Source: an uncultured Candidatus Saccharimonadales bacterium (GTDB taxonomy: Bacteria; Patescibacteriota; Saccharimonadia; UBA4664). Taken from it: a stretch of DNA of 64,000 nt. The stretch spans positions 6,323-70,322 of the forward strand of contig CAYXSN010000001.1 in assembly GCA_964467655.1 (NCBI GenBank). The letters are read 5' to 3'. The notes beneath the pieces were generated by a model. The model made no database searches. It saw only the letters and a program-made list of their open reading frames with translations, and had not been told where the DNA came from. Position 1 is the first letter of the stretch; every line of letters starts with the position of its first letter. Of this stretch, positions 3,275 to 27,787 are shown piece by piece. The position numbers and the translations under genes are program-made.

Positions 3275-3310
3275 GGGTGTGTTTGATATCCTCTTGATGC
3301 GTTGCTAGTT

Positions 3311-3700: not shown

Positions 3701-3703
3701 GAT

Positions 3704-3820: not shown

Positions 3821-3850
3821 GACGTGGTGGTCCTTCTCGTACTGATTAGT

Positions 3851-4111: not shown

Positions 4112-4165
4112 ATTAATGACTACAATTCCCCATTATAGATGCCAAACACTTGATTGTAAAGCTTT

Positions 4166-7764: not shown

Positions 7765-7950
7765 CTACCAGCTCGCCTTAGTGATACCAGGGATCTGACC
7801 CCGGGAAGCGTATTCCCTGAAGCAAACCCGGCAGAGGGCGAATTTACGAATATAACCGCGGGGCCGGCCACAAATCTGGCAGCGGCGGACAAGCCTTGTC
7901 GAAAACTTAGGTTTACGCTGGGCTTTGACTACGAGTGCGACGCGTGCCAT
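7765..7950 (-). CDS. rpsZ: 30S ribosomal protein S14 type Z (zinc-binding, 61 aa)
   Basis: 61-aa [64 protein letters not shown] with a CxxC...CxxC zinc ribbon. Confidence 0.9.
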
Positions 7951-12275: not shown

Positions 12276-12553
12276 TATTTAGCTCCCTCGAACAATTCGA
12301 TTTTGCCAGACTTGAGTTTGACATATGCTTTTTTGGTATCGGTTTGACGGCCGAAAATTTGACGGTAGCGCTTGAGTTTACCTTTGGCAATCACCATATT
12401 AACGGCAGCAACCTTGACCTTAAAAGCTTTTTCGACTGCCTTAGCTACCTCAATTTTATTGGTGCTGGTGGGTACTTCGAATACGAAGATGCTTTGTTCG
12501 GCTAGTCCTATGGCTTTTTCGGAAATTTTCGGAGTGAGAGTGAGCTGACTCAT
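12275..12553 (-). CDS. rplW: 50S ribosomal protein L23 (start trimmed)
   Basis: Internal start MSQLTLTPKISEKAIG... gives ~92-aa L23. 4-nt overlap with rplD. Confidence 0.9.
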   Translation of the reverse strand: MSQLTLTPKISEKAIGLAEQSIFVFEVPTSTNKIEVAKAVEKAFKVKVAAVNMVIAKGKLKRYRQIFGRQTDTKKAYVKLKSGKIELFEGAK

Positions 12554-13203
12554 GACGCACCTTGATCTTTCTTTTCGCCAAGCCAATGGCCAACTTCAGC
12601 CAGGGCGGCGGAAGTGAAAACTAAGTGGTCGGCGTTCATAATGGTAAACACATTGAGGTAATTAGCCGAGACGAGTTTGAGGCCAGCGACATTGCGAGTA
12701 GCCCGCTCCAGTAAATCGGTTTTGGCAGGAACCACGATGACCACATTGCCTTCAAGGCCGAGCTTGGTTAAGAGCTGGGTAATGGGTTTGACCTTGCCTT
12801 CGGCTGAATCGATGTTTTCGATGACTTTGATAGCGCCAGCGGCGGCCTGCAGGCTGAGGGCATGACGCAAAGCTGTTCGCTTCATGCGCACAGGTAAGGC
12901 TAGCTTAAAATTCTGACTGCCGGTGGGTCCAAAGACCACCCCACCACCACGCCAGTTCGGCACTCGGATAGAGCCGACGCGGGCGCGGCCGGTGCCTTTT
13001 TGTTTCCAAGGTTTTTTACCGCCACCAGCGACTTCACCTCTTTTGAGTGTGACGGCTGAAGCAGATCGGCCGTTGGCTAGATAGGTACGGTAGGCCTGAC
13101 CAACGAGTTGCTCATTGGGGGTCTGGCTAAATATATACGTATCTAGTTTGGTCTTGACGTCCTTAGTGGCTCCTGTAGCAGAGAATGTAGTCACAGAATG
13201 CAT
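12550..13203 (-). CDS. rplD: 50S ribosomal protein L4
   Basis: 217-aa ORF with L4 fold motifs (ALPVRMKRTALRHALS...). Confidence 0.95.
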   Translation of the reverse strand: MHSVTTFSATGATKDVKTKLDTYIFSQTPNEQLVGQAYRTYLANGRSASAVTLKRGEVAGGGKKPWKQKGTGRARVGSIRVPNWRGGGVVFGPTGSQNFKLALPVRMKRTALRHALSLQAAAGAIKVIENIDSAEGKVKPITQLLTKLGLEGNVVIVVPAKTDLLERATRNVAGLKLVSANYLNVFTIMNADHLVFTSAALAEVGHWLGEKKDQGAS

Positions 13204-13862
13204 TAGATAACTCCTCTCACACTCACTAAGCCGCGCTTCGGCCCGGGCACTGCGCCGCTTACGCCGATAACACCGAGAGCCGCATCGATAACGGCGATTT
13301 TCAGACCTTTGACAGTTACTTGTTCGTGGCCCATGCGGCCGGCCATCTTCATGCCTTTGAATACGTGCTCCGGATATCCAGATCCGATAGATCCGGGTGC
13401 GCGGTAATTGTGAGAACCATGGGTTTTGGGCCCACGGCTGAAGTTGTGACGCTTAATGGTGCCGGCAAATCCTTTGCCCTTTGATACACCTGTGACCTCA
13501 ACGGCGTCGCCAACTTCAAAGGTGGTGACGTCAACTTTTTGGCCCACAGTCAGAGCTAGGGCAGCATCGGCTGCGGCAGTGTATTCTTTGACCCGCGGGT
13601 GCTTCGGGTCAATGGCATCAATCCTGAATTCTTTCATCACCTTGGCATTGCTACCTGAGGCTTTGAGATGGCCGGCCTGGGGTTTGGCCTGGTCTTTGGC
13701 CTCGCCAAAGCCCAGCTGGACGGCATTGTAGCCGTCACTTTCAAGCGTCTTAAGTTGAGTAACGGTGCAGGGGCCGGCCTGAATCAACGTTACACGCATA
13801 ACACTACCGTCTTGAGCAAACAGCTGTGTCATTCCGAGTTTGGTACCGAGCAATGCCTTCAA
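13203..13862 (-). CDS. rplC: 50S ribosomal protein L3
   Basis: 219-aa ORF MKALLGTKLGMTQLFAQDGSVMRVTLIQAGPCTVTQ... canonical L3. First gene of this r-protein run; there is no rpsJ upstream. Confidence 0.95.
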   Translation of the reverse strand: MKALLGTKLGMTQLFAQDGSVMRVTLIQAGPCTVTQLKTLESDGYNAVQLGFGEAKDQAKPQAGHLKASGSNAKVMKEFRIDAIDPKHPRVKEYTAAADAALALTVGQKVDVTTFEVGDAVEVTGVSKGKGFAGTIKRHNFSRGPKTHGSHNYRAPGSIGSGYPEHVFKGMKMAGRMGHEQVTVKGLKIAVIDAALGVIGVSGAVPGPKRGLVSVRGVI

Positions 13863-13982
13863 AGGAGTGGTCCTTTTACATAATTAATATCTAGCTCACG
13901 CCGGTTTCACTCATGTGCCGCGGTACTTGGCTTTACCACGTACATGCGTGACCTGGACATGCCTAGATGTAAATACCAGGAC

Positions 13983-14012
13983 ATCATAGCCTATCTGGGG
14001 CGTGCCTGTCAA
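13983..14012 (-). promoter_or_regulatory. Sigma70-like promoter upstream of rplC (TTGACA-18nt-TATGAT)
   Basis: Minus strand reads TTGACA (plus 14007-14012), an 18-nt spacer, then TATGAT (plus 13983-13988), about 115 nt upstream of the rplC ATG. Identified by eye only. Confidence 0.5.
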
Positions 14013-14037
14013 CCTTTTAGGGTTGTCTTTTTGGCCG

Positions 14038-14304
14038 TCAGCCCAAAAACGGCGGAAGGTTGACGAAGAAGCCGGCGCCCATAAGGCCGACTACGGCGGC
14101 CATGAGCATAACGGCGTACTCAACTTTGCGATCAATCGCAAAGTGGTCCTTTTGGGCAATCAATAGCCCGAGTACGAGTCCCAAGGGAAAAACAACGTAG
14201 CCGTTATATTTTACCCAAATCATACCCACTACTAGGTAGATGAGTAGCTTGAGAAAATAGGCGTCGTCGGTTTCACCGGGCTTGAATGATTTCTTATTTG
14301 CCAT
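14038..14304 (-). CDS. Small hypothetical membrane protein (2 predicted TM helices)
   Basis: 88-aa ORF with two hydrophobic stretches (LLIYLVVGMIWV, AVMLMAAVVGLMGAGFFV). No family recognised. Confidence 0.45.
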   Translation of the reverse strand: MANKKSFKPGETDDAYFLKLLIYLVVGMIWVKYNGYVVFPLGLVLGLLIAQKDHFAIDRKVEYAVMLMAAVVGLMGAGFFVNLPPFLG

Positions 14305-14349
14305 AGTACGTTTTAGTATAGACCGTAATCGAGCGTTAGCGCAAATTAC

Positions 14350-15606
14350 TTATGCTTTTTGCTGACGAGTGGTGCTTTTGCGGGCTGGTGGGTTATCTGA
14401 TGCCAAAAAGCTGTGACCAGCTAGTTCAGCGGGCAAAAAACCCTCTGGGTGTTGGTAGCCGGCCGCCCATTCGTAGCCTTCACCGTAGCCCAAATCTTTC
14501 ATGAGTTTCGTGCTGGCATTGCGCAAATGCAGCGGAACCTCGGCATTGGGCGCCTCAGCGAGCGCTTTTTCGGCCGCGCCAAGTGCATTGTAGACCCGAC
14601 GGTCTTTGGGGGCTTTGGCGAGCGCCACAGTGGCGTGGGCCAGCGTGATGCGGCCCTCGGGCAAGCCGATCCTCTCGATGGCTTGTGAAGTACTGACGGC
14701 TAATGTCAAAGCGCCCGAGCTAGCCAGGCCGATGTCCTCGGAGGCAAAAATAATGAGTCGGCGGGCAATGAATTTTGGGTCTTCACCGCCAGCCAGCATC
14801 CTGACTAAATAATAGAGCGCTGCATCGGCGTCGCTGCCACGCAATGATTTGATGTAGGCCGAAATGAGATTGTAATGGTACTCACCTTTTTTGTCGTATT
14901 TGACGCCTACCAGGCCTAGCGCTTGCTGGGCGTGAGTCCGCGTGATTTTGGTGGCGGTCAAACCGGCAGCAGTTTCCAGTGCGCCCAAGGCTACGCGGGC
15001 GTCGCCACCGGCTTGTTCGGCAATAAAGCCGGCCGCCTCGGCCTCCAGCAGCTTACTTCCCAGATGATCAGTGGCTTTTTGGAGGATTTTTTCAATATCC
15101 GAAGGCGTCAGCGCCGAAAGAGTCACCACCCGGGCTCTCGAGAGCAAGGGTCCGATAACCTCAAACGAGGGGTTCTCGGTGGTAGCGCCAATCAGGATAA
15201 TGGTGCCGTTTTCCAAGTGGGGCAAGAACGCGTCCTGCTGGGCCTTGTTGAATCTATGGATTTCGTCAACAAATAATAGGGTGGTTTCGCCCATGGACCG
15301 CCGTAAGTTGGCTTGTTCGATGACTTTTTTGACGTCAGGCAGGCCGCTTGTGACAGCTGACAGTTCGGTGAAAGCGGCCCCGGAGCGGCCGGCAATCAGG
15401 CGAGCCAAGGTGGTTTTACCGCTACCAGGTGGCCCCCAGAGGATGAGCGACGACAACGCCGAGCCATTGAGCATACCATGGACTACCGTACCCGGCCCGA
15501 CTGCTGCCTCTTGACCGATGTAGTCCTCTGGTGTTGCCGGCCTTAATCTGTCAGCCAGTGGCCTGGGTGCTTGGGCATCAAACAGTGTGGCGCCCTTAGA
15601 GGTCAT
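14350..15606 (-). CDS. rarA: Replication-associated recombination protein A (RarA/MgsA AAA+ ATPase)
   Basis: 418-aa ORF with Walker A (GPPGSGKTTLARLIA), Walker B (LFVDEIHRFNKAQQDAFLP) and the RarA/MgsA C-terminal helical region. Confidence 0.9.
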   Translation of the reverse strand: MTSKGATLFDAQAPRPLADRLRPATPEDYIGQEAAVGPGTVVHGMLNGSALSSLILWGPPGSGKTTLARLIAGRSGAAFTELSAVTSGLPDVKKVIEQANLRRSMGETTLLFVDEIHRFNKAQQDAFLPHLENGTIILIGATTENPSFEVIGPLLSRARVVTLSALTPSDIEKILQKATDHLGSKLLEAEAAGFIAEQAGGDARVALGALETAAGLTATKITRTHAQQALGLVGVKYDKKGEYHYNLISAYIKSLRGSDADAALYYLVRMLAGGEDPKFIARRLIIFASEDIGLASSGALTLAVSTSQAIERIGLPEGRITLAHATVALAKAPKDRRVYNALGAAEKALAEAPNAEVPLHLRNASTKLMKDLGYGEGYEWAAGYQHPEGFLPAELAGHSFLASDNPPARKSTTRQQKA

Positions 15607-16174
15607 ACACCTTGATGTCGTGGGGCGCCAGGTAGGCTAATTTCAGATGGGCGCCAATGACTGATGGCCAGCGCAAGCGGCTGGCGGTAAAGCACTCTTT
15701 GGCCAAAGTAGTCAGACCGGCTTTATCAAGGTGAGCGATATCACGGTCGGTGATCAGTTTTTGAGCCACCAGTTTATCTCCGGCGAGGGCCGCACCGGCG
15801 TCTAATGTCACCAGGTCAAAATTTGACTTGCTATCTAAATAATAAATCTTAGGTGCTGTGACGTGACGGAGTGGCTCGATACCGGCTATCATAATCTCAG
15901 TGTGCCCGACGTAACTGGCTATATTGGGGATAATTTTGATAGTCAGTTTAGCATGGATGTAATGCGCTACTGTTGTCGTATGCTCATGCTCGCCCAGGCT
16001 ATCAAGGTGAGAATCAAAAATGAGGCCCTCGATGGCGCTACGGTCTCCTACAATACTAATGACGGTTCGGTTGTGCAGGAGCTCAAAACGGGCTTTGGCA
16101 GTATTACCGTTTGGCCCCTGGTCGAGGCCGACAACCATCTCTTGTCCGTTACTGAATGCTAGTCCGAGAGGCAT
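15596..16174 (-). CDS. Hypothetical protein, tentative PNP/MTA-nucleosidase-family relative
   Basis: 192-aa ORF. N-terminus (LGLAFSNGQEM) and the segment GEHEHTTTVAHYIHAKLTIKIIPNIASYVG loosely resemble MTA/SAH nucleosidase motifs (IGIIGAMEEEV, VEMEATAIAHV...RAISDVAD), but the catalytic Asp position is substituted. Assignment is weak. 11-nt overlap with rarA. Confidence 0.35.
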   Translation of the reverse strand: MPLGLAFSNGQEMVVGLDQGPNGNTAKARFELLHNRTVISIVGDRSAIEGLIFDSHLDSLGEHEHTTTVAHYIHAKLTIKIIPNIASYVGHTEIMIAGIEPLRHVTAPKIYYLDSKSNFDLVTLDAGAALAGDKLVAQKLITDRDIAHLDKAGLTTLAKECFTASRLRWPSVIGAHLKLAYLAPHDIKVYDL

Positions 16175-16193
16175 AATGCCGTACGGTCCCTCC

Positions 16194-16841
16194 TTATCTA
16201 GCTGTATTGTAACGCGCCTTACCGACGGCGGCTAGTGCTCCATCGAGAGCTTTGGCGAGCGGATCATCAAGCAATCTGATTTCTGAGATTAGTTTGGCAG
16301 TCGTAAATTCGGGGTCAGCGGTTTGGCCTGAGTTTTTGGCGTTGTAGGCGAGTACCTCGAGGCGGTTGGCCTGATCAAGCCAATAATAGGCTAAGGCGAT
16401 TTGGTTGAGTTGAGCGGGATTGAGTAGGCCTGTAAGCTGACCTGTTCCCAGAGCTGCCGGCCAGTAGGCCATGACGTAGCCCAGGCGCGCGACCAGACCG
16501 GTACTACCGCGGCGCGAATCCAGTAGGGCTACGTTCTCCCTGAGTTCATTTTCGAGTTGGTCGAGGGCGGTGGTGGATGCGGCGGCTGATGGCACTGAGG
16601 CTGCTGGTGCTGTAGTTGGTTGGCTGTTGCGCCAGGCCACATACCAACTGATGAGCCAGAGTCCAAGTGTCAGAATGATCAGGGTTCCGAGCAGCCACCA
16701 CCAGGTAGTATTCAACCACACACCGTCGCGCCAACTGGTGATGTCGGCAAACCAGCCCAGCCGACCAGCCAGATAGCCGATGACCATAAGAATGGCTACG
16801 GTAATGGCGTACGGGATTGATGTACGAACTGTCTGATTCAT
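16194..16841 (-). CDS. Hypothetical membrane protein (2 N-terminal TM helices plus soluble domain)
   Basis: 215-aa ORF with hydrophobic N-terminal helices and Trp-rich juxtamembrane segments. No family recognised. Confidence 0.5.
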   Translation of the reverse strand: MNQTVRTSIPYAITVAILMVIGYLAGRLGWFADITSWRDGVWLNTTWWWLLGTLIILTLGLWLISWYVAWRNSQPTTAPAASVPSAAASTTALDQLENELRENVALLDSRRGSTGLVARLGYVMAYWPAALGTGQLTGLLNPAQLNQIALAYYWLDQANRLEVLAYNAKNSGQTADPEFTTAKLISEIRLLDDPLAKALDGALAAVGKARYNTAR

Positions 16842-16999
16842 CGCGCTATCTTACTGATAAACAGATGATTTGTACAGGATAAGTGGTTTATATTTGATAT
16901 TTATGTTTAACCGGCTTGTCGGATGTTGCTAATCTGAGATACACTTGAGCGAAGCATTTTGCCGGTACCTCCACAACCACTACCAGGAGCTGATTTTTT

Positions 17000-17860
17000 A
17001 TGTTCACCAAACTATGCCGACTGTTGGCCGTGCTTGTAGCGGCTGCGGTCTTTATCAGCGGTATGTTCATGACTTTGGCACTACCAAAAGCGGCGGCCGC
17101 CACCCAGATTCCCGTGAGTACTGGTATCTGGGGCGCCGTGTATTCGCAAGGTGGCTATGTGATGGCTACCGAAACTATCGACTACCACCGCCGTCACCAG
17201 GCCGGTAGTATCGGCTACATTGTGAGGAGTGAGGCCGCCTGGAACCATGCTGCGAATCAGCTGGTCCCCAAAGCTCAGCAGGTGGGCATGAGGGTCTCAC
17301 CGGTGATACTCCCCTATACCGAGGCGCCAACCCGTCAGCGGTGTCAGGCTACCAAGTACTTCGGTGGCAATCTCAACCGCGCCGTGACTAGATTGAGCCG
17401 CACTGCTGGTGTCGGCGACGTGGTCATAGATGACTTCATGGCAAATGTGACTCATTACTCACGTAAGAGCTGCAAGAGTATCAGTACTCAGCAATTTGGA
17501 GCTTGGGATAAGCAGGCGAAGCGCTATGGCAAAAGAGTTATGCCAACGCTTTATCCCCGTGATTTGAATTCAAAGAAGGCCAAGACTCTCAAAAGTCTCG
17601 ATGCCTATCGTCCCAAGGTGGTGTTCGCCTACAACAGTTTGCGCGATACTCGTAATCTGCCTAAGGCCGTACATGGTCTGCACAAACGAATGCCTCACGC
17701 ACAGGTCGTCATTATGGTGTACGCCGGTCCGTACCGGCATCAGTCAGCCAATAAAAAGGTAGTGGCGATTCAGCTGCGCCAAGCTATGGCACTCGACCGC
17801 AAATACCGGTGGGTTGTGGGTGTTTGGCAGTATAAGCCGCCGCTGCCCAAGCTCAAGTAA
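17000..17860 (+). CDS. Hypothetical secreted protein (signal-peptide-like N-terminus)
   Basis: 286-aa ORF. N-terminus MFTKLCRLLAVLVAAAVFISGMFMTLALPKAAAA looks like a signal peptide or anchor. AGGAG about 10 nt upstream of the ATG. Only plus-strand gene in this part of the window. Confidence 0.55.
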   Translation: MFTKLCRLLAVLVAAAVFISGMFMTLALPKAAAATQIPVSTGIWGAVYSQGGYVMATETIDYHRRHQAGSIGYIVRSEAAWNHAANQLVPKAQQVGMRVSPVILPYTEAPTRQRCQATKYFGGNLNRAVTRLSRTAGVGDVVIDDFMANVTHYSRKSCKSISTQQFGAWDKQAKRYGKRVMPTLYPRDLNSKKAKTLKSLDAYRPKVVFAYNSLRDTRNLPKAVHGLHKRMPHAQVVIMVYAGPYRHQSANKKVVAIQLRQAMALDRKYRWVVGVWQYKPPLPKLK

Positions 17861-17902
17861 CTCTCGCCCGCCCCTAGGACTCGTTCCTGGGGGCCATTAA
17901 CT

Positions 17903-18328
17903 TTATACCTGCGCACCTTCTCTGGCCTGATTGGCCCAGTGGTCGGCTAGTTCGTTGCCTTCGTCGTTGTTGTGTCCCCTCACCCATACCAATGTAGCAT
18001 TCGACTTTTGATACAACTCGTAGGCTTCTTGGACGATATCGAGGTTTTTGATGGGCCCGCCGGGTTTTTTCCAGCCCTTTTTCTCCCAGCCCGGCGCCCA
18101 TTTGGTGATGACATTGATCCAAAATTCGCTATCGGTATGAATGGCGCAAGCCCGGCCGGCGGCGTCTTGTAAGGCAGCAATCAGTGCCCTGCCTTCCATA
18201 CGGATATTGGTGGCGTTGGCGTCGCTACCTAAGATATGAGGTTTCATGTTTTTGATAACGGCAAAGCCTCCGGGTCCAGGGTTGGGTACGCAGCTGCCGT
18301 CGGTGTAATAGATGATGGATTCTGTCAT
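17903..18328 (-). CDS. rnhA: Ribonuclease HI
   Basis: 141-aa ORF MTESIIYYTDGSCVPNPGPGGFAVI...NNDEGNELADHWANQAREG with the RNase H DEDD catalytic pattern. No reverse-transcriptase domain attached. Confidence 0.9.
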   Translation of the reverse strand: MTESIIYYTDGSCVPNPGPGGFAVIKNMKPHILGSDANATNIRMEGRALIAALQDAAGRACAIHTDSEFWINVITKWAPGWEKKGWKKPGGPIKNLDIVQEAYELYQKSNATLVWVRGHNNDEGNELADHWANQAREGAQV

Positions 18329-18562
18329 GGTACTTATGATAGCAACTTTACGGATGAGGGTGTTACCACAAATTGCTATTATGTATTTTCGTTCAATATA
18401 TAATTCATGATTTCAGCAGAAAGATTGGAAAAGATTTAACGAGATTGTGGCTAATTGCTCGCAAAAACTGCCGATGCTACTGCGCAGCGAGGCATCTGAT
18501 TCGTTGTAAACGGGCATAATTACCAATGATTGGCTGAGCATTCATTGCGTTGATCATAACTT

Positions 18563-18582
18563 AAAACCCCCGTTTCCGGGGG
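18563..18582 (-). terminator. Rho-independent terminator downstream of rpsJ
   Basis: GC-rich hairpin CCCCCG-TTTC-CGGGGG (plus 18567-18582), followed on the minus strand by a T run. Confidence 0.55.
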
Positions 18583-18600
18583 CTTTGTCTGAGGACGAAA

Positions 18601-18933
18601 TTACATTTTGATTTCGATGTCGACGCCGGCGGGGAGGTTGAGATTCATGAGGGCGTCGATGGTTTTGGGGGTGGGCTCGGTGAGGTCGATGAGCCGCTTG
18701 TGAGTGCGCATTTCGAATTGCTCACGGGCATCTTTGTAGATGTGCGGGCTACGGAGCACTGTCAGGCTGTTCTTCTCGGTTGGGAGAGGAATCGGACCGG
18801 CGACATGAGCACCGGTTCGGGTAGCTGTGTCAATAATCTGCTTGGCGGATTGGTCAATGACCTTGGAGTCGTAAGCCTTGAGCCGGATGCGGATACGCTG
18901 CTTCTCGGGGGCTTTGGTTTCGGCGGTTGCCAT
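18601..18933 (-). CDS. rpsJ: 30S ribosomal protein S10
   Basis: 110-aa ORF ...[43 protein letters not shown]...[30 protein letters not shown], canonical S10. Separated from rplC by 4.7 kb. Confidence 0.95.
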
Positions 18934-19000
18934 GGGTAGGTACTATCTCTCGATAAATTAATATTGATGTGAGCCACACTCTTATCGTGGTTTCCTGCTG

Positions 19001-19030
19001 ATTTAAGCATAACTGTACCTGATTTGTCAA
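19001..19030 (-). promoter_or_regulatory. Candidate sigma70-like promoter for rpsJ (TTGACA-18nt-TTAAAT)
   Basis: Minus strand reads TTGACA (plus 19025-19030), 18 nt, then TTAAAT (plus 19001-19006), about 60 nt upstream of the rpsJ ATG. Confidence 0.4.
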
Positions 19031-19037
19031 ATATTTA

Positions 19038-19071
19038 GCCCCGCTCAGTAGGAGTTTTCACTGAGCGGGGC
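19038..19071 (-). terminator. Perfect 12-bp hairpin downstream of the low-GC ORF; possible terminator
   Basis: GCCCCGCTCAGT / ACTGAGCGGGGC inverted repeat with a 10-nt loop. The following minus-strand sequence is A/U-rich but has no clean U tract. Confidence 0.35.
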
Positions 19072-19124
19072 TGTGGGTCAATGGGTGGGCCGGGTTTGAC
19101 CCGCCACAAATGCTTTGATGCGCG

Positions 19125-20114
19125 TCATGGACTGTCCTTTGCTGGGTTTGTGGGTTCGATAATCGTTAGAATATAATCCAGAAATGTCTGCATATGACAA
19201 CTTAAATCCGATTCGACATCACCAGTATCGCATTTTGAAGCAATAGTCTTTGCCCTACGACTGAACGAGATGCCAATTTCGTCACTTGTAGATGTACAAA
19301 TAACAAAACTGCCGTAATCGTCAGAGTAATATTCGCCGAACGCGAATGTTAAACTGAAGTTGCTCGATAATCTACCGAAGATCGCTACAATTAGGCAAGG
19401 CTTGGGAGCTGAGGCTTTAAGTATAGTAATCTGTGTTATTGGTTCATTCGGATCCCAATCTAAAAGTGCAGCTTCCCATCCGTATATGTAGACCGCATTC
19501 AGAGACAACACCAACCTGTCTATTCTTGATTGATGCTCACTTAGACATTTCGAAAACGCATCGATTATACGTTGAACTTGCGTCGGCACAGTAGGTGCTG
19601 GATTGAGTTGTCTGATAATTATTTCGCCTGCCGAAATTAAGCCTTCGACGGCATTATTTTCTTGAAAGTGGTAGTCACTATATGATTGTTGCTGTGACCC
19701 GCTTAGATTAATCCTGACTTTGTCCCGTACATTTGCAACCAAGATATCAGTTACTTTTTGGCGCCTCCGACGTATCAGCATTACGGCTTGGAGGCTAAAT
19801 AGCCCCCGTTGAAAGCTGATGCAATATACTTTGATTGATCGCTGTGATGTAGTGGCCGGCACGAGCATATAGTACTGACCTTGGTGGTCATGTAGATTAC
19901 TGGCTAAATGGATTATGCCAGATTCGTTGACAACGCCAATTTGTTGATCTTCACGAACGAGTCCTTGGATAATTGACGCAAGTAGCTTACTGCTTCGATC
20001 GGCTGGATTCGCTATATCTGCAATGGATTCGGCTGCTGAGATAAATACATGGGCAAGCGAAGTCAGAGTCTCGTCTGGTAATGCGGTTGCCTCATTCATA
20101 TAACGTCCAATCAT
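19125..20114 (-). CDS. Hypothetical protein, low-GC ORFan inserted between tuf and rpsJ
   Basis: Long ORF (356 aa in the track; 329 aa from the first ATG downstream of the predicted promoter, MIGRYMNEATALPDE...). GC by eye is about 43-46 percent against about 57 percent in flanking genes. No recognisable domain. Flanked by a terminator (20197-20236) and a hairpin (19038-19071). Confidence 0.6.
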   Translation of the reverse strand: MIGRYMNEATALPDETLTSLAHVFISAAESIADIANPADRSSKLLASIIQGLVREDQQIGVVNESGIIHLASNLHDHQGQYYMLVPATTSQRSIKVYCISFQRGLFSLQAVMLIRRRRQKVTDILVANVRDKVRINLSGSQQQSYSDYHFQENNAVEGLISAGEIIIRQLNPAPTVPTQVQRIIDAFSKCLSEHQSRIDRLVLSLNAVYIYGWEAALLDWDPNEPITQITILKASAPKPCLIVAIFGRLSSNFSLTFAFGEYYSDDYGSFVICTSTSDEIGISFSRRAKTIASKCDTGDVESDLSCHMQTFLDYILTIIEPTNPAKDSP

Positions 20115-20151
20115 ATGGGCGGGCGACGGCAGTGTGTAAAGGTGCCGCCTG

Positions 20152-20180
20152 ATTATGCCGTAGTAATGGCAACTTGGCAA
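20152..20180 (-). promoter_or_regulatory. Candidate promoter for the low-GC ORF (TTGCCA-17nt-CATAAT)
   Basis: Minus strand reads TTGCCA (plus 20175-20180), 17 nt, then CATAAT (plus 20152-20157), about 40 nt upstream of the ATG at 20114. Confidence 0.35.
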
Positions 20181-20196
20181 TGATTTTGGACACAAC

Positions 20197-20236
20197 TAAA
20201 AACAGGCTCCGGTTGGGAGCCTGTTTTTAGTTTTTT
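20197..20236 (-). terminator. Bidirectional rho-independent terminator downstream of tuf
   Basis: 9-bp stem ACAGGCTCC-GGTTG-GGAGCCTGT, flanked by an A run upstream and TTTTTAGTTTTTT downstream. On the minus strand it sits 11 nt after the tuf stop. Confidence 0.6.
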
Positions 20237-20247
20237 GTAACGAGGCG

Positions 20248-21432
20248 TTACTTGATGACTTTAGTTACCACACCGGCGCCAACGGTTCGGCCACCTTCGC
20301 GGATAGCGAAGCGCAGGCCTTCTTCCATGGCGATCGGAGCGATCAACTCAACTTTCATCTTGATGTCGTCGCCAGGCATGACCATCTCAACGCCTTCAGG
20401 CAAGATGACAGCACCGGTTACATCGGTGGTGCGGACGTAGAACTGAGGCTTGTAGCCCTTGAAGAACGGAGTGTGACGGCCGCCCTCATCCTTGTTCAAG
20501 ACGTACACCTGGGCCTCAAACTCGGTGTGAGGAGTAACGGTACCGGGCTTAGCCAAAACCTGGCCGCGCTCGATGTCGGTACGTTCAACGCCGCGCAGCA
20601 AAGCTCCCACGTTGTCACCGGCCTGGGCGTCAGGCAGCAGTTTCTTGAACATTTCAACGCCGGTTACGACGGTTTTCTTGGTGGGGCGGATACCGACGAT
20701 TTCAACTTCGTCGTTGACCTTGAGGACACCCTGGTCGATGCGGCCGGTGGCAACAGTACCGCGGCCTTTGATCGAGAAGACGTCTTCAATAGCCATCAAA
20801 AACGGCTTGTCGACTTCGCGCTTGGGCTCAGGGAAGTAGTCGTCCATAGCTTTGACGAGGTCTAAAATGGACTGCTCGTTGTCGGCATCGCCTTCGAGAG
20901 CCTTGAGGGCAGAGCCCTTGATGATCGGGCAGTTCTCGTCGAACTCGTTCTTGGCGAGGAGCTCGCGGATTTCCATCTCGACCAATTCGGCCAGCTCTGG
21001 GTCGGCCATGTCCATTTTGTTCATGTAAACCAGAATGGAAGGCACACCCACCTGGCGGGCCAACAGAATGTGCTCGCGGGTCTGAGGCATGGGGCCATCG
21101 GCAGCAGATACCACGAGGATGGCACCATCAACCTGGGCGGCGCCGGTGATCATGTTTTTAACGTAGTCAGCGTGACCAGGCATGTCGACGTGGGCGTAGT
21201 GACGCTTCTCGGACTCATATTCCTGGTGGCTGGTAGCGATGGTAATACCACGCTGGCGCTCTTCGGGAGCGTTGTCAATCTGGTCGTAAGCGACCGGCTT
21301 GTTGATGTCTGAAGGCATCTTCTTTGCCAGTACCGAGGTAATGGCGGCGGTCAACGTGGTTTTACCGTGGTCGACGTGACCCATAGTGCCCACATTGAGG
21401 TGCGGTTTGTTGCGCTGGAATGTATCAGCCAT
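20248..21432 (-). CDS. tuf: Elongation factor Tu
   Basis: 394-aa [34 protein letters not shown]...[18 protein letters not shown], canonical EF-Tu G-domain motifs. AAGGAG 6 nt upstream of the ATG. Confidence 0.97.
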
Positions 21433-21527
21433 ACAATCTCCTTAAAAAAATTATGATTCGTCCCACGCCCCACTCAGGCGTGGGAATGCGGGTCAGCATA
21501 AAAATACTGCCCGCATTGGACGTAGGT

Positions 21528-21557
21528 ATTATAGGGGTTTTGAGCGCCTTTTGTAAA
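21528..21557 (-). promoter_or_regulatory. Candidate tuf promoter (TTTACA-18nt-TATAAT)
   Basis: Minus strand reads TTTACA (plus 21552-21557), 18 nt, then TATAAT (plus 21528-21533). Two hairpins lie in the roughly 90-nt leader. Confidence 0.45.
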
Positions 21558-21657
21558 GTAGTAGGTGCCGCCAGGGATTAACGGTTTGTCCTGTGTGGGT
21601 TACGTTCCCACTCCGGCCAATAATGGTGTTATGCCTGATAGTGACATTTTGGAGGGA

Positions 21658-22221
21658 TTATTTGATGTGGCCCAGATGGATGCCGGCTAGCATGAGCGCG
21701 GCGATGGTCTGGCCATTTGTAATTGTGCCGTCTTTGATGAGTTTGAGGGCGCTATTCCAAGTGACGAATTTGGTGGCTTCAGGGTTGTCTGATGTGTGTC
21801 GAATACCCGGAGCCAGCTTATGGAGGGTTTGAGCTATATATACTAACGAATACTCGGGTGTACGGCCGATGAACGGATATGTTTGATGCGGCAGGAGTTG
21901 CCAGTGCTCAGCCATATAGCCAGCTTCTTCGGCCAGCTCGCGTTGGGCCATGTCGAGCGGGTCTTGCCCATCGGTGGAACCACCCGGCAGCTCAAGGGAT
22001 GGAGCGTTAATTACGAACCGGTTTTGTTCGACGAGCGCCAACCGATGACGGTTATCAAGGGCCACCACCAAAACGCTGGGTGGGCTTTCGATCCAGGTGT
22101 AGACGCTTGCCTGGCCACTTGGTTCGATGACATTATCTTCGTGCAGGCTGAAGCGGCTGTTTTGGTAAACTGTGCGGCTACTAATGCGTTGCCATTGGCT
22201 CATGCCATTATTGTATAGCAT
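21658..22221 (-). CDS. Nudix hydrolase (ADP-ribose pyrophosphatase-like)
   Basis: 187-aa ORF with a Nudix box, LPGGSTDGQDPLDMAQRELAEEAGY. Confidence 0.75.
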   Translation of the reverse strand: MLYNNGMSQWQRISSRTVYQNSRFSLHEDNVIEPSGQASVYTWIESPPSVLVVALDNRHRLALVEQNRFVINAPSLELPGGSTDGQDPLDMAQRELAEEAGYMAEHWQLLPHQTYPFIGRTPEYSLVYIAQTLHKLAPGIRHTSDNPEATKFVTWNSALKLIKDGTITNGQTIAALMLAGIHLGHIK

Positions 22222-22272
22222 AAGCGGTCCAGTAGGTAGGTACCCGCTGGACCGCTGGCCGTTACGATTGGT

Positions 22273-22728
22273 TTAACGCTTACTGGACTGAGGCCGTTTG
22301 CGCCGGACTTTGTATGGTTGAGTCCCGGGTGGAGCGGGCGTTGGTCTATTTGTCTCCCGCTTGACGCGAATGTCGAGCTCGTGATCGACACCGGCGATAG
22401 CATTGATGACATTCGTGACAACATCAAGTGCGAATCGGCGGGCGACCCGAAATTTGTCTGGTGGTACTTCATAGACTGCCACACCTGGATGTTTGTGGTA
22501 TGTTCCGCGCAGCTCCACCCACTTTATTTGGCCGCCGAATTGCTTCATGACTGCCCTCACGCTTGAGTAGATACCGGTGTTTGGTTCGTTGACAGCCGGG
22601 TTTGGGGCAAACTCAAAGGTTCTTTGGGGCCAGCACCGCTGCAAGTCGGGCGGTAGCACGAGCAGTAGCGTGCCATGGCGAGGATCTTGGTGGATAAACT
22701 CTACGCTCACAACGATAGTTGTCGTCAT
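22273..22728 (-). CDS. Hypothetical protein (151 aa) co-oriented with the downstream Nudix gene
   Basis: Start trimmed to MTTTIVVSVEF... (GGAG 7 nt upstream), the first ATG after the predicted promoter. Basic Pro-rich C-terminal tail. No family recognised; a Tpt1/KptA resemblance was checked and rejected. Confidence 0.5.
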   Translation of the reverse strand: MTTTIVVSVEFIHQDPRHGTLLLVLPPDLQRCWPQRTFEFAPNPAVNEPNTGIYSSVRAVMKQFGGQIKWVELRGTYHKHPGVAVYEVPPDKFRVARRFALDVVTNVINAIAGVDHELDIRVKRETNRPTPAPPGTQPYKVRRKRPQSSKR

Positions 22729-22792
22729 TGTCACTCCACTAGGATTCGGGGTTGGATGAAGTATAAGGTGCTCTGGACCGGCGGGTACTTGT

Positions 22793-22821
22793 ATAATAGG
22801 CACCCACACCAGAGACGTCAA
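22793..22821 (-). promoter_or_regulatory. Strong sigma70-like promoter (TTGACG-17nt-TATTAT) for the hyp151-Nudix pair
   Basis: Minus strand reads TTGACG (plus 22816-22821), 17 nt, then TATTAT (plus 22793-22798), immediately after the fusA terminator. Confidence 0.5.
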
Positions 22822-22834
22822 ATCAAGACACATC

Positions 22835-22865
22835 AAAACGGCAGCTCATTATGAGCTACCGTTTT
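22835..22865 (-). terminator. Rho-independent terminator downstream of fusA
   Basis: Near-perfect palindrome AAAACGGCAGCTCAT-T-ATGAGCTACCGTTTT on plus, with one G-U wobble on the minus-strand RNA. It follows the fusA stop by about 20 nt. Confidence 0.55.
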
Positions 22866-22883
22866 GGATGACGCAGAGCGAAA

Positions 22884-24965
22884 CTAGTCTTTTTTTGCAC
22901 CTGATTTGGCCATAATCTCTTCGGCTACCTGGCGTGGCACTTCTTCGTAATGGTCGAATTCCATAGAGTTCGAAGCCCGACCTTGAGTCATTGACCTGAG
23001 AGTCGTGGTGTAGCCAAACATTTCGGCCAGCGGCACGAAGGCATCGATGATTTTGGCACCGGAGCGGTCTTCCATTTTCTCGATGCGTCCCCGCTTGGAG
23101 TTGAGGTCGCCGATGACGTCGCCCATGAACTCTTCTGGTACGGTCACTTCAACTTTCATAATTGGCTCGAGGATGATGGGCTCAGCCTTTTTGGCAGCTG
23201 CCTGGAAGGCCATGGAACCGGCCACCTTGAAGGCCATTTCATTGGAGTCGACATCGTGATATGAGCCGTCGTACAGTTTGGCTTTGATATCCACCATCGG
23301 GAAGCCGGCTGAAACGCCGTTTTGCATGGCTTCCTTCACGCCTTCTTCGGTTGGCTTGATGTACTCGCGAGGCACGACACCACCGACAATGGCGTTTTCA
23401 AACTCGAATCCGCCACCTGGTTCAAGTGGTGTCAGTTCAACCCAGACATCGCCGTACTGACCGCGACCACCTGATTGGCGGACGAATTTGCCTTGGGCCT
23501 GGGCGGTCTTCTTGATGGTTTCACGGTAAGCTACCTGAGGCTTGCCAACGTTGGCTTCTACCTTGAACTCACGTTTCATACGATCAACGAGGATATCGAG
23601 ATGGAGCTCACCCATGCCCTCGAGAATGGTTTGAGCAGTCTGCTCGTCGGTGTGCACACGGAAAGTGGGATCTTCTTCGGCTAAACGCTGAAGGGCATTA
23701 CCCATCTTCTCTTGGTCAGACTTGGTCTTGGGTTCTACGGCAATTGAGATGACCGGCTCGGGGAAGGTGATGCTCTCGAGAATCACTGGATGGTCAAGAT
23801 CGGTGAGAGTATGCCCGGTTGTGGTGCCCTTGAGGCCGACGGCGGCGGCAATTTCACCGGCGGATACTTCTTGGACTTCTTCGCGAGAGTTGGCGTGCAT
23901 GAGTACGAGGCGGCCGATGCGTTCTTTTTCGCCAGTTGAGGCGTTTAAGATATATGAACCGCTTTTGAGTACGCCTGAGTATACCCTGAAGAAAGCTAGC
24001 TTACCAATGAATGGGTCGGTGGCAATCTTGAAGGCCAGGGCGCTAAATGGCTCTTCGTCGGCTGGTTTGCGCTCAAGCTCTTCGCCAGATTTGGGATTGG
24101 TGCCCCAAACTGAACCAACGTCGAGCGGGTTGGGCAGGAAGTCGACCATGGCATCGAGCAATTTTTCCACGATGACTCCGCGACCATCGCCACCGGTTAC
24201 GGCAAAGAACTGACCCGAGAGCACGCTTTTGCGGATAGCGCTCTTGAGTTCATCGGTAGTCAGCTCGTGGCCTTCGAGGTACTTCTCCATAAGGGCGTCA
24301 TCGGCTTCCACGGCGGCTTCCACCAAATGTTGGCGGTAATTCTTGGCTTTTTCGAGCATGTCGGCTGGAATTTCGCCCTCAATCAGCTCGTGGTCGTGGT
24401 ATTCCTTGTAGGTGTAGGCTTTCATTTCGATAAGGTCGATTACGCCATTGATGGTCTGCTCGAAACCGATGGGCAGGTGGATGGCATAGGCACGCTTGCT
24501 TAAACGCTCATGGATTGATTCGAGCGACTTGTAGAAGTCGCCGCCGGTCTGGTTGATCTTATTGATGAAGCAGATGCGCGGCACGCCGTATTTGTCGGCC
24601 TGGCGCCAAACCGTTTCTGACTGCGGCTCTACGCCCATCTTACCGTCGAACACGGTGACGGCGCCGTCGAGCACGCGCAAGCTACGCTCCACTTCTACCG
24701 TGAAATCGATGTGACCAGGGGTATCAATGATGTTGATGCGTCGACCTTTCCAAAAGCAGGTAGTGGCTGCGGAGGTAATGGTAATGCCACGTTCGCGCTC
24801 TTGCTCCATCCAGTCCATGGTGGCTTCACCTTGGTGGACTTCACCGATCTTGTGGGTTTTACCGGTGCGGTACAAAATACCCTCGGTGGTCGTGGTTTTG
24901 CCAGCATCAATGTGGGCAATAATGCCGATGTTCCGGGTGTTTTCGAGCGAGTATTGACGGGCCAT
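22884..24965 (-). CDS. fusA: Elongation factor G (start trimmed to [25 protein letters not shown])
   Basis: Canonical EF-G G-domain ([20 protein letters not shown]) and domains II-V. The 34-codon N-terminal extension in the ORF track is unlikely to be translated. Confidence 0.97.
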
Positions 24966-25027
24966 GGGGGTAGTTAGAATCCTTTCATAATAATATGTCC
25001 TACACGAAAAAAGCGTGCCAGGCACAA

Positions 25028-25057
25028 ACTTATGGTTATTATACAAGCTAACTACTT
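25028..25057 (-). promoter_or_regulatory. Candidate fusA promoter (TTGATT-18nt-TATAAT, TG immediately upstream of -10)
   Basis: Minus strand reads TTGATT (plus 25052-25057), 18 nt, then TGTATAAT (plus 25028-25035), about 60 nt upstream of the trimmed fusA ATG. AT-rich region. Confidence 0.45.
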
Positions 25058-25074
25058 GGCTAATCAAGTGCTAT
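25046..25074 (+). promoter_or_regulatory. Divergent plus-strand promoter (TTGGCT-17nt-TATTAT), back to back with the fusA promoter
   Basis: Plus strand reads TTGGCT (25046-25051), 17 nt, then TATTAT (25069-25074). Its -35 abuts the -35 of the minus-strand fusA promoter. Confidence 0.4.
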
Positions 25075-25116
25075 ATGGTATTATTTTGTGCGTTCGGTAC
25101 CTACACAATCGAGACG

Positions 25117-25293
25117 ATGAAAGCAGGTAACATCATGAGTTGGCCCGGTCTTAAGCGTACGAACGGCACGGTTCCGTCTCCAGAGAAGCCTGACGTGATA
25201 AGGGGTAGGCGAAAGGCGCAAGAAGAGAAGGAAGAGCAAGAGCGCCTAGCGCGTCGTGGTAGGTGGATGCCAAGAGCCTTTAAGAAGAAGTAA
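25117..25293 (+). CDS. Small basic hypothetical protein (58 aa); coding status uncertain
   Basis: ATG at 25117 gives MKAGNIMSWPGLKRTNGTVPSPEKPDVIRGRRKAQEEKEEQERLARRGRWMPRAFKKK. It lies between the plus-strand promoter and a plus-strand intrinsic terminator. Weak SD. Confidence 0.3.
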   Translation: MKAGNIMSWPGLKRTNGTVPSPEKPDVIRGRRKAQEEKEEQERLARRGRWMPRAFKKK

Positions 25294-25432
25294 CGAGAGA
25301 ACACGCAGGATAGTCATAAGCCCGGAAAATGATCTGCCTGACTGGCATTCTTCCGAACTGATACCCCTAAGGAGCAAGCATGACTAACTACGATTCAGAA
25401 AATAGGCGCGGTGAGCGTACCTAAGCACCACC

Positions 25433-25470
25433 AGCCCGTTACGCGATCCTTGCGTAGCGGGCTTTTACTT
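25433..25470 (+). terminator. Plus-strand rho-independent terminator (12-bp stem plus T tract)
   Basis: AGCCCGTTACGC-GATCCTT-GCGTAGCGGGCT followed by TTTTACTT. The same hairpin sits right at the mpl stop on the minus strand but has no U tract there. Confidence 0.55.
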
Positions 25471-26847: not shown

Positions 26848-26882
26848 GGTGCCATTGTACCATCATGCTGATAGTGCAAGAG

Positions 26883-27089
26883 TTATTTACCATTCAGATG
26901 ATGTAAGTTCATGGATTCGGTAACAAATTCTTGCCACCACCATTCGTGAGGGTTGCTGTTTTTCATCGCCTGGGCAATTGCTTGGGCTGATTTGGTTCTC
27001 AAGTGTGGTACTCGATTGATAAAATCGTCATCAAACCATTTTTGGGCCAATTTGTTACCACGCCAACCCATGAGCCACTCGATGTACAT
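26883..27089 (-). CDS. Small Trp-rich hypothetical protein (68 aa)
   Basis: ORF between mpl and the Nudix gene on the same strand. No family recognised; could be spurious. Confidence 0.3.
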   Translation of the reverse strand: MYIEWLMGWRGNKLAQKWFDDDFINRVPHLRTKSAQAIAQAMKNSNPHEWWWQEFVTESMNLHHLNGK

Positions 27090-27158
27090 GTGACCGCGGC
27101 ATATCGATGAGCATGGCGGCTTGTTCTATGAAATGGAGCGATGAGATTGACGGTTGAG

Positions 27159-27785
27159 TCATTGACTTGCCATTCGGTTTTTGACGGTAGTTCTGGCTTG
27201 AACTGTCAGATCGGGTAGGTCCAGTAGTTTTTGAAATGAATTAAGGTGATACCAAAAACGCGCGGCCAGAAAATCGTACTCCTGAGATCTCGGACCGCTG
27301 GCATCAATCAGCGCTTTCGCCTGCTGTAGTGTCATTGGCTTCACTTCAATCTTTTCGCCATTGTCGAGCTGTGGTTGGGTGTATTGGGTGGGTGCCCAGG
27401 CCAGGAATGTGTAAACTAGGCGTTCAATCCGAAAATCTTTTTGGCGGCATTCAATGAGTCGCCAATTCGCAAATGACCACCCAGTTTCCTCTGTCACTTC
27501 TCTTTGTGCGGCTTCTAGCTCGGTTTCTAGTTCAATGTCATGGGCACCAGAGGGTAAATCATAGTAGAGTGCGGAACCGGGCTGCTGTTGGTGGAGAACC
27601 AGGAGTTTATCATCGACGAGACATAATACCTCCACCGTATCAGGGCGTTTGGCCATCTCAAACGTTGCGGTGCTGCCGTCGAACATGGTCTGAGGCCACT
27701 GATAGACATCAAACATCACCCCCTCGAAGACCCGCTTGGCTTGAGAAGGTATGGTTCTAGCATATGGCGGCAGATATTGACGCAT
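27159..27785 (-). CDS. Nudix hydrolase
   Basis: 208-aa ORF with a Nudix box, SGAHDIELETELEAAQREVTEETGW. Confidence 0.8.
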   Translation of the reverse strand: MRQYLPPYARTIPSQAKRVFEGVMFDVYQWPQTMFDGSTATFEMAKRPDTVEVLCLVDDKLLVLHQQQPGSALYYDLPSGAHDIELETELEAAQREVTEETGWSFANWRLIECRQKDFRIERLVYTFLAWAPTQYTQPQLDNGEKIEVKPMTLQQAKALIDASGPRSQEYDFLAARFWYHLNSFQKLLDLPDLTVQARTTVKNRMASQ

Positions 27786-27787
27786 GG

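Follow-up and report, generated by a model that had tools for sequence, protein, structure and literature searches.

Background

Few gene adjacencies in Bacteria are as stable as that of rpsJ (ribosomal protein S10) and rplC (L3), which in the canonical S10 operon of the Escherichia coli type follow each other within one unit. A different arrangement is described here for a 64 kb stretch of a Candidatus Saccharibacteria (class Saccharimonadia) genome, called the window in the following, where the two genes are separated by a 4738-bp gap (13863-18600) containing a terminator and six genes, one of which lies on the opposite strand, and where rplC is preceded by a predicted promoter and a conserved structured leader.

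Several described systems are relevant for comparison. The E. coli S10 leader, which precedes rpsJ and comprises five hairpins, mediates both transcription termination (attenuation) triggered by L4 and translational repression, and its family is confined to Gammaproteobacteria (PMC3616713). For the Archaeoglobi, a candidate L4 r-leader, whose ligand is inferred, has been reported upstream of rplC-rplD-rplW-rplB (Eckert & Weinberg 2020, PMC7247131). As a rule, Archaea have S10 as the last gene of the str/L30e cluster (S12-S7-EF-2-EF-1a-S10), separate from uL3-uL4-uL23(-uL2) (PMC10833476). Insertions at the junctions of concatenated translation operons are known from Gammaproteobacteria and Bacilli, such as bfd-bfr between str and S10 in Enterobacteria (Brandis 2021, PMC8046335). 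Finally, the annotation of the cultivated Southlakia epibionticum ML1 lists, in this order, EF-Tu (SEML1_0477), S10 (SEML1_0476), a 321-bp hypothetical gene (SEML1_0475) and L3 (SEML1_0474), with a 640-bp gap (PMC10633639 Table S1); the paper makes no comment on the S10-L3 arrangement (Wang et al. 2023, PMC10633639). Neither the split nor a ribosomal-protein leader in Saccharibacteria or Patescibacteria was found described in the searchable literature, subscription journals being outside its coverage.

Separation of rpsJ and rplC in related genomes

The distance from the rpsJ stop to the rplC start agrees exactly with the 4.7-kb separation reported by a first-pass annotation, made from the sequence alone. 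Pfam searches confirm four of the gene identities, i.e. S10, L3, RNase H and RarA/MgsA. All relevant genes lie on the minus strand, except orf286, which is on the plus strand.

The window S10 has its top match, among species-representative genomes, in the Candidatus Saccharibacteria metagenome-assembled genome L001 (81% identity), and the near homologues of the window L3 carry the labels Saccharimonadia or Saccharimonadales. S10 itself proved too conserved for collecting loci: a scan of the representative genomes returned nearly exclusively Actinomycetota and Bacillota, with L001 as the one useful locus. Related loci were gathered by using L3 as anchor, from metagenomes and from assemblies holding particular L3 proteins, and the window proteins were mapped onto them. 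The L3 proteins of these relatives are 52-88% identical to that of the window.

Both genes could be placed in 13 Saccharibacteria lineages, including the cultivated S. epibionticum, and in all 13 they are separated by at least one gene, over distances of 0.64-10 kb. The gap measures 4.74 kb in the window and 6.13 kb in its closest relatives, L162/L161, which include the complete genome CP064960.1 (L3 87-88% identical). It reaches 8.82 kb in L165 (L3 76%), 9.95 kb in L168 (74%), 9.67 kb in L170 (76%), 6.05 kb in L172 (75%) and 5.38 kb in L173 (73%). Shorter gaps are found in L084-L086 (2.36 kb; L3 57-59%), in L176 (2.33 kb) and in L174 and L175 (0.75 kb), where a single gene, on the opposite strand, lies inside. 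For five further lineages (L082, L083, L087, L177, L001) the partner gene lies beyond the available flank or contig, i.e. more than 3.2, 6.2 and 3.4 kb upstream of rplC in L082, L087 and L177, respectively, and more than 2.2 kb downstream of rpsJ in L001.

None of the sampled Saccharibacteria loci has rpsJ directly next to rplC. Metagenome loci with adjacent genes were considered as possible canonical Saccharibacteria and dropped, since their L3 proteins are at most 50% identical to that of the window and their N-termini look actinobacterial, acidobacterial or derived from other members of the Candidate Phyla Radiation (CPR). These loci were retained solely as out-group negatives for the leader model described below.

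The synteny comparison proposed in the first-pass annotation thus reveals the split in every sampled Saccharibacteria lineage. On these grounds, the shift of the operon boundary seems to be general in Saccharibacteria, and the split may be read as an old, class-wide shift, much older than a rearrangement of one genome, where 'class-wide' is an extrapolation. A further break was observed in one lineage: in L175 the operon is interrupted again after rplB, with SecY, IF-1, S13, S11, S4, RpoA, L17, L13, S9 and others inverted on the opposite strand (12412-20633) and the genes from rpsS to rplO not seen in the 8 kb after rplB. This may be a real inversion or a misassembly.

Promoter and structured leader upstream of rplC

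The promoter sequence read in the first-pass annotation, TTGACA-18-TATGAT, is present in front of rplC, with 11 out of 12 positions matching the consensus. Since promoter-like matches are frequent in the region (14 found against 7.3 expected), this match would by itself be weak. All 17 distinct sequences examined, however, contain TTGACA upstream of rplC, followed after 17-18 nt by TATGAT, TATAGT, TACAAT, TAAACT or TACACT. Given this conservation across the clade, in front of upstream genes which are unrelated and often on the opposite strand, the predicted promoter is beyond chance. An independent rplC promoter fits the transposon data of S. epibionticum, where the gene between S10 and L3 is non-essential and takes 21-26 insertions of a Ptuf-hph-Ttuf transposon, while L3 and the later genes are essential (PMC10633639); the orientation of the insertions is unreported, so the agreement is not a proof.

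Between promoter and start codon, alignment of the regions upstream of rplC revealed conserved blocks, and the sequences were then segmented by hand. The order of promoter, leader and start codon is the same in all relatives (14012-13983, 13968-13876 and 13862 in the window). The leader, ~65-95 nt long across lineages and ~93 nt in the window, consists of a helix P1 (CUAGG...CCUAG), a small internal loop, a helix P2 of 3-4 bp, a helix P3 (GG-UC...GA-AA-CC) with a bulge of two adenines, and an apical hairpin of variable size (5-43 nt); a U-rich tract (UUUAUUU or UUUGUUUU) and the Shine-Dalgarno sequence follow. In the window, P1 is formed by UCUAG/CUAGA, P2 by CAUG/CGUG and P3 by GGUC/GA-AA-CC, with the variable stem at the apex; AUGUAA then stands between a tract rich in U and A and the Shine-Dalgarno sequence. 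Little or no change is seen in the GGUC/GA-AA-CC core and its AA bulge, in contrast to the flanking stems, which covary: P1 occurs as CUAGG/CCUAG, CUGAG/CUCAG, CUAGG/CCUGG, UCUAG/CUAGA and CUGGG/GCCAG, and P2 as GUG/CAC, GUG/CAU, GCG/CGU, GCA/UGU and CAUG/CGUG.

A covariance model, R1, was built from 13 leader sequences, each of which folds singly into the common architecture. The 5' untranslated region (UTR) of the window has a folding energy of -39.3 kcal/mol (z = -3.63 against shuffles). R1 matches each locus of the split clade once, always just 5' of rplC. In the window it scores 53 bits (E 6e-10) and gives a single match over 64 kb with filters off. The four lineages outside the training set are all found, at E-values from 2e-7 to 0.05 (L177, 42.6 bits; L175, 34.3; L176, 31.8; L174, 19.7), and their matches all lie between promoter and rplC. 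No match was obtained in 73 metagenome loci from outside Saccharibacteria, nor in 1.41 Mb of str/S10 regions from other phyla.

When 16 sequences were aligned, 86% of the cells were paired, against 25-52% in slid controls, 8 pairs varied on both sides, and the covariation score was 0.40 against 0.20 in shuffles, with 0 of 500 reaching 0.40; these shuffle figures are supportive and are not to be taken as probabilities. The same fold was obtained independently with RNAalifold, where compensatory changes are seen in 9 of 14 pairs. The support for P1 is understated, as L084-L086 are one column off in the 3' half in both the MAFFT and the covariance-model alignments. The predicted leader structure is therefore conserved and backed by compensatory changes.

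No Rfam 15 family matches the window at the gathering score, or, in the 5000-27000 region, at E-values up to 1. The first-pass annotation had supposed that any action of L4 on an S10 leader would be uncoupled from rplC-rplD. This remark probably does not apply: the E. coli type of leader is reported from Gammaproteobacteria only (PMC3616713), no match to Rfam was found, and a different conserved structured leader lies directly before rplC.

Some additional features of the leader region were noted. Between leader hairpin and Shine-Dalgarno sequence, many sequences contain a start codon with UAA as the very next codon, a minimal 'start-stop' reading frame. It occurs as AUGUAA in the window (13876-13881, minus strand), L162, L081, L170, L172 and L173, as GUGUAA in L082 and as UUGUAA in L083; it is absent from L174 and L175, so it is not universal. 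The minimum-free-energy fold of the window pairs AUGUAAA with UUUACAU, located at the transcript's 5' end. L177 has ~175 nt of extra spacer between leader and rplC start. The rplC start codon itself is not ATG in several lineages, being TTG in the window (13860-13862) and L162 (10001), and GTG in L174, L176 and L177.

The rpsJ transcription unit

The terminator of rpsJ noted in the first-pass annotation is an intrinsic one, a CCCCCG-GAAA-CGGGGG hairpin with TTTT, and lies 18 nt past the stop codon, and strong intrinsic terminators are located within ~40 nt of the rpsJ stop in 9 of 10 lineages. Together with the conserved rplC promoter, these terminators provide comparative support for the claim, also made there, that rpsJ and rplC are separate transcription units.

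The upstream side of rpsJ is found in two forms. L085, L086, L001 and L174-176 have rpsJ at most 50 nt after tuf with no promoter between, and rpsJ would then be the last gene of the tuf unit. The window, L162, L172 and L173 have a terminator, followed by TTGACA-N18-TGcTTAAAT and a conserved leader upstream of rpsJ, which probably makes the gene monocistronic. Both the rpsJ and the tuf promoter of TM7x were employed in S. epibionticum, as strong promoters separate from each other (PMC10633639), so that a usable promoter belonging to rpsJ is experimentally established for the phylum.

The rpsJ 5' UTR (18934-19000 in the window, minus strand) is itself conserved in L162, L172 and L173; it includes CCACG...GUGUGG, which forms a small hairpin, as well as the element UAAUUUAUC(U)CGAGA. 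The element is also contained in the TM7x rpsJ promoter fragment (PMC10633639 Table S4) and is found as UAAUUUGUACCGAGA in L165. This region may represent a second, rpsJ-specific regulatory leader.

Genes located between rpsJ and rplC

The features of the region are reported in Table 1, in the order in which they are transcribed from the minus strand.

Table 1. Features of the window from the str-type cluster to rplC and the S14 gene. Positions refer to the 64 kb window.
Feature	Position	Strand	Evidence or remark
rpsL	31254-31691		str-type cluster, order and strand kept
rpsG	30696-31172		str-type cluster
orf195			after rpsG
PCC-domain protein			after rpsG
ABC-F ATPase	27788-29458		after rpsG
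NUDIX (first)	27159-27785		after rpsG
Mur ligase	25465-26847		after rpsG
fusA	22884-25067	-	open reading frame, annotated from an upstream TTG
orf187	22273-22836	-	small gene between fusA and tuf
NUDIX (second)	21658-22221	-	small gene between fusA and tuf
tuf (EF-Tu)	20248-21432	-	82-98% identical to tuf of related loci; upstream neighbour, str-type cluster
tuf terminator	20194-20232		perfect 17-bp hairpin, 17 pairs, 100% complementary
orf356	19125-20195	-	low-GC orphan between tuf and rpsJ, window-specific
Hairpin CCCCGCTCAGT...ACTGAGCGGGG	19039-19070	-	closes the orf356 unit; read from sequence
rpsJ promoter	19001-19030	-	TTGACA, 18 nt, TGcTTAAAT (extended -10); read from sequence
rpsJ (S10)	18601-18933	-	Pfam Ribosomal_S10, E 1e-37
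rpsJ terminator	18563-18582	-	intrinsic; read from sequence
rnhA (RNase HI)	17903-18328	-	Pfam RNase_H, E 3e-32
10-bp hairpin	17870-17894		between convergent rnhA and orf286
orf286	17000-17860	+	signal-peptide-like N-terminus; open reading frame and translation
orf215	16194-16841	-	two-transmembrane protein (two hydrophobic N-terminal segments); open reading frame and translation
orf192	15596-16174	-	open reading frame; 3' end overlaps rarA start
rarA/mgsA	14350-15606	-	AAA+ replication-associated recombination protein A; Pfam
orf88	14038-14304	-	small membrane-like protein; open reading frame, missing from the first-pass list
rplC-operon promoter	13983-14012	-	read from sequence
rplC leader	13876-13968	-	covariance model R1, folding, covariation
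rplC (L3)	13203-13862	-	Pfam Ribosomal_L3; TTG start
S14	7765-7950	-	short 61-aa zinc-type

Two of the six genes of the gap are assigned with confidence by their domains. In RnhA the RNase_H domain covers residues 3-136, and the motifs YTDGS, MEGRA, HTDSE and ELADHWA, with the catalytic Asp-Glu-Asp-Asp (DEDD), are readable in the translation, as expected for an RNase HI. RarA matches MgsA_C (7e-52), AAA_assoc_2 (1e-18), RuvB_N (6e-15) and AAA (1e-14), and is assigned to RarA/MgsA. The other four, orf88, orf192, orf215 and orf286, match neither Pfam nor NCBIfam. A nucleosidase or nucleoside phosphorylase identity for orf192, proposed in the first-pass annotation as 'nucleosidase-like', found no support, as Pfam, NCBIfam and PDB profiles (E up to 10) were all negative; its AlphaFold2 model, based on a shallow alignment (4 homologues retrievable), is unusable (pLDDT 34.8).

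The genes orf215, orf192, rarA and orf88 follow each other in this order, with 19 nt between the first two, an overlap of 11 nt between orf192 and rarA, and 45 nt between rarA and orf88. The G+C content at 14-18 kb is 0.525-0.547, against ~0.53 for the window, in keeping with the backbone-like composition already reported. No integrase, transposase, recombinase or insertion sequence family was detected among the six open reading frames by Pfam, nor by NCBIfam on the four Pfam-negative ones, and direct or inverted repeats flanking the region are short and at chance level. The sole tRNA gene of the window is located at 45991-46071.

Much of this content is shared with relatives. In relatives with 73-88% L3 identity to the window, the genes rnhA, orf215, orf192, rarA and orf88 are found in synteny and show 29-93% identity. 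The rarA gene lies upstream of rplC in L082, L083, L162, L165, L168, L170, L172 and L173; in L083 (L3 61%), a 1.3-kb contig, it directly adjoins rplC. The orf88 product is 52-93% identical in L082, L162, L165, L168, L170, L172 and L173, and its gene is mostly located directly after rarA. Every relative whose L3 is at least 72% identical has both genes upstream of rplC, and the pair rarA-orf88 is thus fixed in the window's own subclade. The genes rnhA, orf215 and orf192 co-occur with the pair in the window, L162, L170 and L172; L173 has orf192 only of these three. The fast-evolving orf286 is 43-44% identical in L161/L162 and absent from the other related loci.

From 13862 to 9245, beginning with rplC itself, the open reading frames of the minus strand adjoin or overlap one another. 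Further on, close relatives share with the window the short zinc-type S14, and an 89-aa S14 occupies the same position in the more distant L174 (15990-16259), L176 (15866-16135) and L177 (9280-9549).

Variable cargo and other interrupted junctions

Besides the core genes, the gap contains cargo which differs from lineage to lineage. It includes a glycosyltransferase and a polysaccharide deacetylase in L162, HD, ASCH and DJ-1/PfpI genes in L165, an 857-aa beta-helix protein in L168, HTH, HicA and DUF6855 genes in L170 and L172, an ABC-F ATPase in L085 and a DEAD helicase in L176. Defence or selfish elements are found close to the rplC promoter: L082 has a RelE/ParE-like toxin-antitoxin pair between orf88 and the promoter (2479-3034), and directly upstream of it L087 has a NYN-domain gene and a 1055-aa restriction-methylase-like gene (371-4348), and L177 a diversity-generating retroelement (bAvd and reverse transcriptase; 1570-3014). 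As the cargo changes in this way, the rpsJ|rplC junction behaves as an insertion-tolerant site, presumably because it is an operon boundary. The content of the gap is best described as a conserved core (rnhA-orf215-orf192-rarA-orf88) plus cargo that turns over, and not as one ancient insert. The first-pass suggestion of an old rearrangement, rather than a recent island, consequently holds for the age, the split being present in all sampled lineages with no mobile signature, and fails for the notion of a single old insert.

Four junctions of the collinear cluster are occupied in the window: rpsG|fusA, fusA|tuf, tuf|rpsJ and rpsJ|rplC. The str-type stretch 21433-31172 is interrupted by five genes after rpsG, which fill a 5.5 kb rpsG|fusA junction, and then, past fusA, by orf187 and the second NUDIX gene ahead of tuf. 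The ABC-F ATPase, a possible translation factor, recurs at differing junctions: in the window, in L174 (50-1705) and in L175 (3152-4810) it occupies the rpsG|fusA junction, and in L085 (7714-9357) the one between rpsJ and rplC.

At the tuf|rpsJ junction, orf356 has a G+C content of 0.437 (19-20 kb), against a backbone of ~0.53, no homologue in related loci and a sub-threshold Pfam match only. Flanked by the tuf terminator and by its own hairpin, it looks like a recent, genome-specific insertion that severed rpsJ from tuf.

Proposed organization and alternative explanations

Start and stop sites of transcription in this genome are deduced from the sequence. As proposed, RNA polymerase would halt after rpsJ; the genes of the gap would form units of their own, namely rnhA, orf286 on the other strand, and orf215-orf192-rarA-orf88; and transcription of the rplC operon would begin anew at the sigma-70-type promoter (14012-13983). 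The boundary between the str-type and the S10-type operon would then lie one gene further along than in model bacteria, with rpsJ on the side of tuf, the 'S10 operon' starting at rplC and the leader most likely acting in cis as a regulator. The interpretation as a whole is regarded as highly probable.

The competing view, that rpsJ and rplC effectively form one operon, read through from the rpsJ or tuf promoter, with the rplC promoter as a minor internal one and the hairpin as a processing or stability element, can draw on the fact that all genes of the gap but one share the strand of rpsJ and rplC. It is considered improbable, as it has to be reconciled with the GC-rich rpsJ terminator and its equivalents in other lineages, with the opposite orientation of the only gap gene of L174 and L175 and of the genes abutting the rplC promoter in L162, with near-consensus -35 and -10 elements in all lineages, and with the tolerance of terminator-bearing transposons between S10 and the essential L3 in Southlakia (PMC10633639). 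Still less credible is the view that the region was acquired horizontally in recent times, or was left behind by a mobile element, in this genome alone. Recent insertions do occur in the cluster, as indicated by orf356, and toxin-antitoxin, restriction-modification and retroelement cargo is found at the same junction in relatives; the G+C content of the insert, however, equals that of the backbone, integrase and transposase families and flanking repeats are missing, the core genes are syntenic in relatives and the split is found in every sampled lineage. An assembly artefact, i.e. a chimeric contig, can practically be dismissed, since the order rpsJ ... rarA-orf88 ... rplC recurs in independent NCBI, ENA, JGI and Logan assemblies, including the complete, 1.32-Mb CP064960.1.

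As to the function of the leader, an operon-encoded protein, with L4 or L3 as candidates, would feed back on read-through and/or translation of rplC and later genes, independently of rpsJ. L4 (or L3) would bind the invariant GGUC/GA-AA-CC bulged helix and lower the expression of the whole operon from rplC to rpsQ and beyond, where binding would stabilise the weak terminator hairpin ahead of the U-rich tract and/or block the ribosome-binding site. That the leader is such a feedback element has nearly even chances. It is favoured because covarying stems with invariant unpaired or bulged nucleotides are the usual signature of a recognition site, and because a hairpin and a U-tract precede the first cistron, as in the E. 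coli S10 leader (PMC3616713). A new, Saccharibacteria-specific family of ribosomal-protein leaders, binding L4/L3 and arising together with the ancestral detachment of rpsJ, is a tentative proposal, somewhat short of even odds. The hairpin could alternatively be a constitutive element, which would either protect the 5' end from RNases or shield the operon, as insulator or terminator, against upstream read-through. Its position at or near the 5' end of the predicted transcript and the U-rich tract behind it would suit such a role, and mimicry of rRNA could not be demonstrated; on the other hand, the hairpin comes after the promoter in every lineage, so that it belongs to the rplC transcript, and an invariant core with an AA bulge amid covarying stems is typical of a protein or ligand recognition site. 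A constitutive role, the principal alternative to feedback, is held to be rather unlikely.

Several observations weigh against the proposed boundary shift and feedback. Promoters and terminators are consensus matches, which gain credibility through conservation only; the interval from orf88 to the rplC promoter lacks a strong terminator, so some read-through from the rarA run is possible, and no T-run accompanies the hairpin behind rnhA on the minus strand, two points which also suit a single operon. The leader alignments were fitted to a given structure and their sequences are related. The loci were sampled through L3, within the identity range given above, and the loci with adjacent genes seem to belong to other phyla, so that none of the loci marks the branch on which the split originated. 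Comparison of R1 with E. coli rrnH rRNA gave only matches with E of at least 1, driven by the U-rich tail; the pattern AGGTC...GAWACC was not found in E. coli rRNA, and the 7-mers shared by leader and rRNA, evaluated on E. coli rRNA only, are scattered over 16S and 23S with nothing above chance. One of them, GGAAGCG at 23S 297-303, lies in the region of the L4 site and is treated as a chance match, equally good 7-mers being scattered elsewhere.

Comparison with known systems

The Southlakia locus, from the same phylum, has the same order of tuf, S10, inserted gene and L3, and its inserted gene is non-essential; it differs in having one 321-bp gene in 640 bp, against six genes in 4.7 kb in the window. 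The likeness to the archaeal layout consists in the location of S10 after an elongation-factor gene, immediately after tuf in the six lineages named above, and in its detachment from a cluster which begins with L3 and has upstream signals of its own, promoter and leader being found in 17 sequences. Unlike the archaeal ones, the parts keep strand and order in Saccharibacteria and are only 0.6-10 kb apart, and in the window rpsJ is further cut from tuf by orf356 and a terminator, and has its own promoter. S10 is detached from an L3-first cluster also in cyanobacteria and plastids.

Like the E. coli S10 leader, the Saccharibacteria leader is a structured element placed before a long operon containing rplC-rplD-...-rpsQ, with a hairpin and then a U-rich tract before the first cistron. 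It differs in preceding rplC, in forming a single irregular hairpin and in having no detected homology of sequence or structure (no Rfam match). With the L4 r-leader of Archaeoglobi it shares the location of a conserved RNA motif before an L3-first operon, S10 being encoded elsewhere, and a ligand that is inferred in both cases; the two belong to different domains of life, and the window has no Rfam match, where the presence of the archaeal motif in Rfam was left unchecked. Finally, as for insertions of the bfd-bfr type, non-ribosomal genes are located at an operon boundary, order and strand of the cluster are kept and the content later varies by lineage. The Saccharibacteria junction, however, falls inside the S10 operon of model organisms, the content of the gap is far more variable, and four junctions are occupied in the window.

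Significance

The arrangement as such is already visible as data in the published Southlakia annotation, and its recognition alone is new. The general boundary shift in Saccharibacteria, the highly variable cargo of the junction and a leader motif outside Rfam appear to be new. The lineage-wide break shows that the adjacency of rpsJ and rplC is not obligatory. It marks an operon boundary in Saccharibacteria, and comes with an archaeal-like placement of S10 and with a gap open to defence and accessory genes. This junction represents a natural neutral site beside very strong promoters, in organisms that have only lately become genetically tractable, and the leader model provides a compact marker for annotating Saccharibacteria contigs. 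Promoter and leader together are a testable candidate for the balance of ribosomal proteins in epibionts with minimal genomes. If a true regulator, the leader would be the first ribosomal-protein leader described for the CPR, as far as the searches show, and, if the proposed organization is true, these epibionts of reduced genome would have an archaeal-style split of S10 and the L3 operon, with each part separately controlled.

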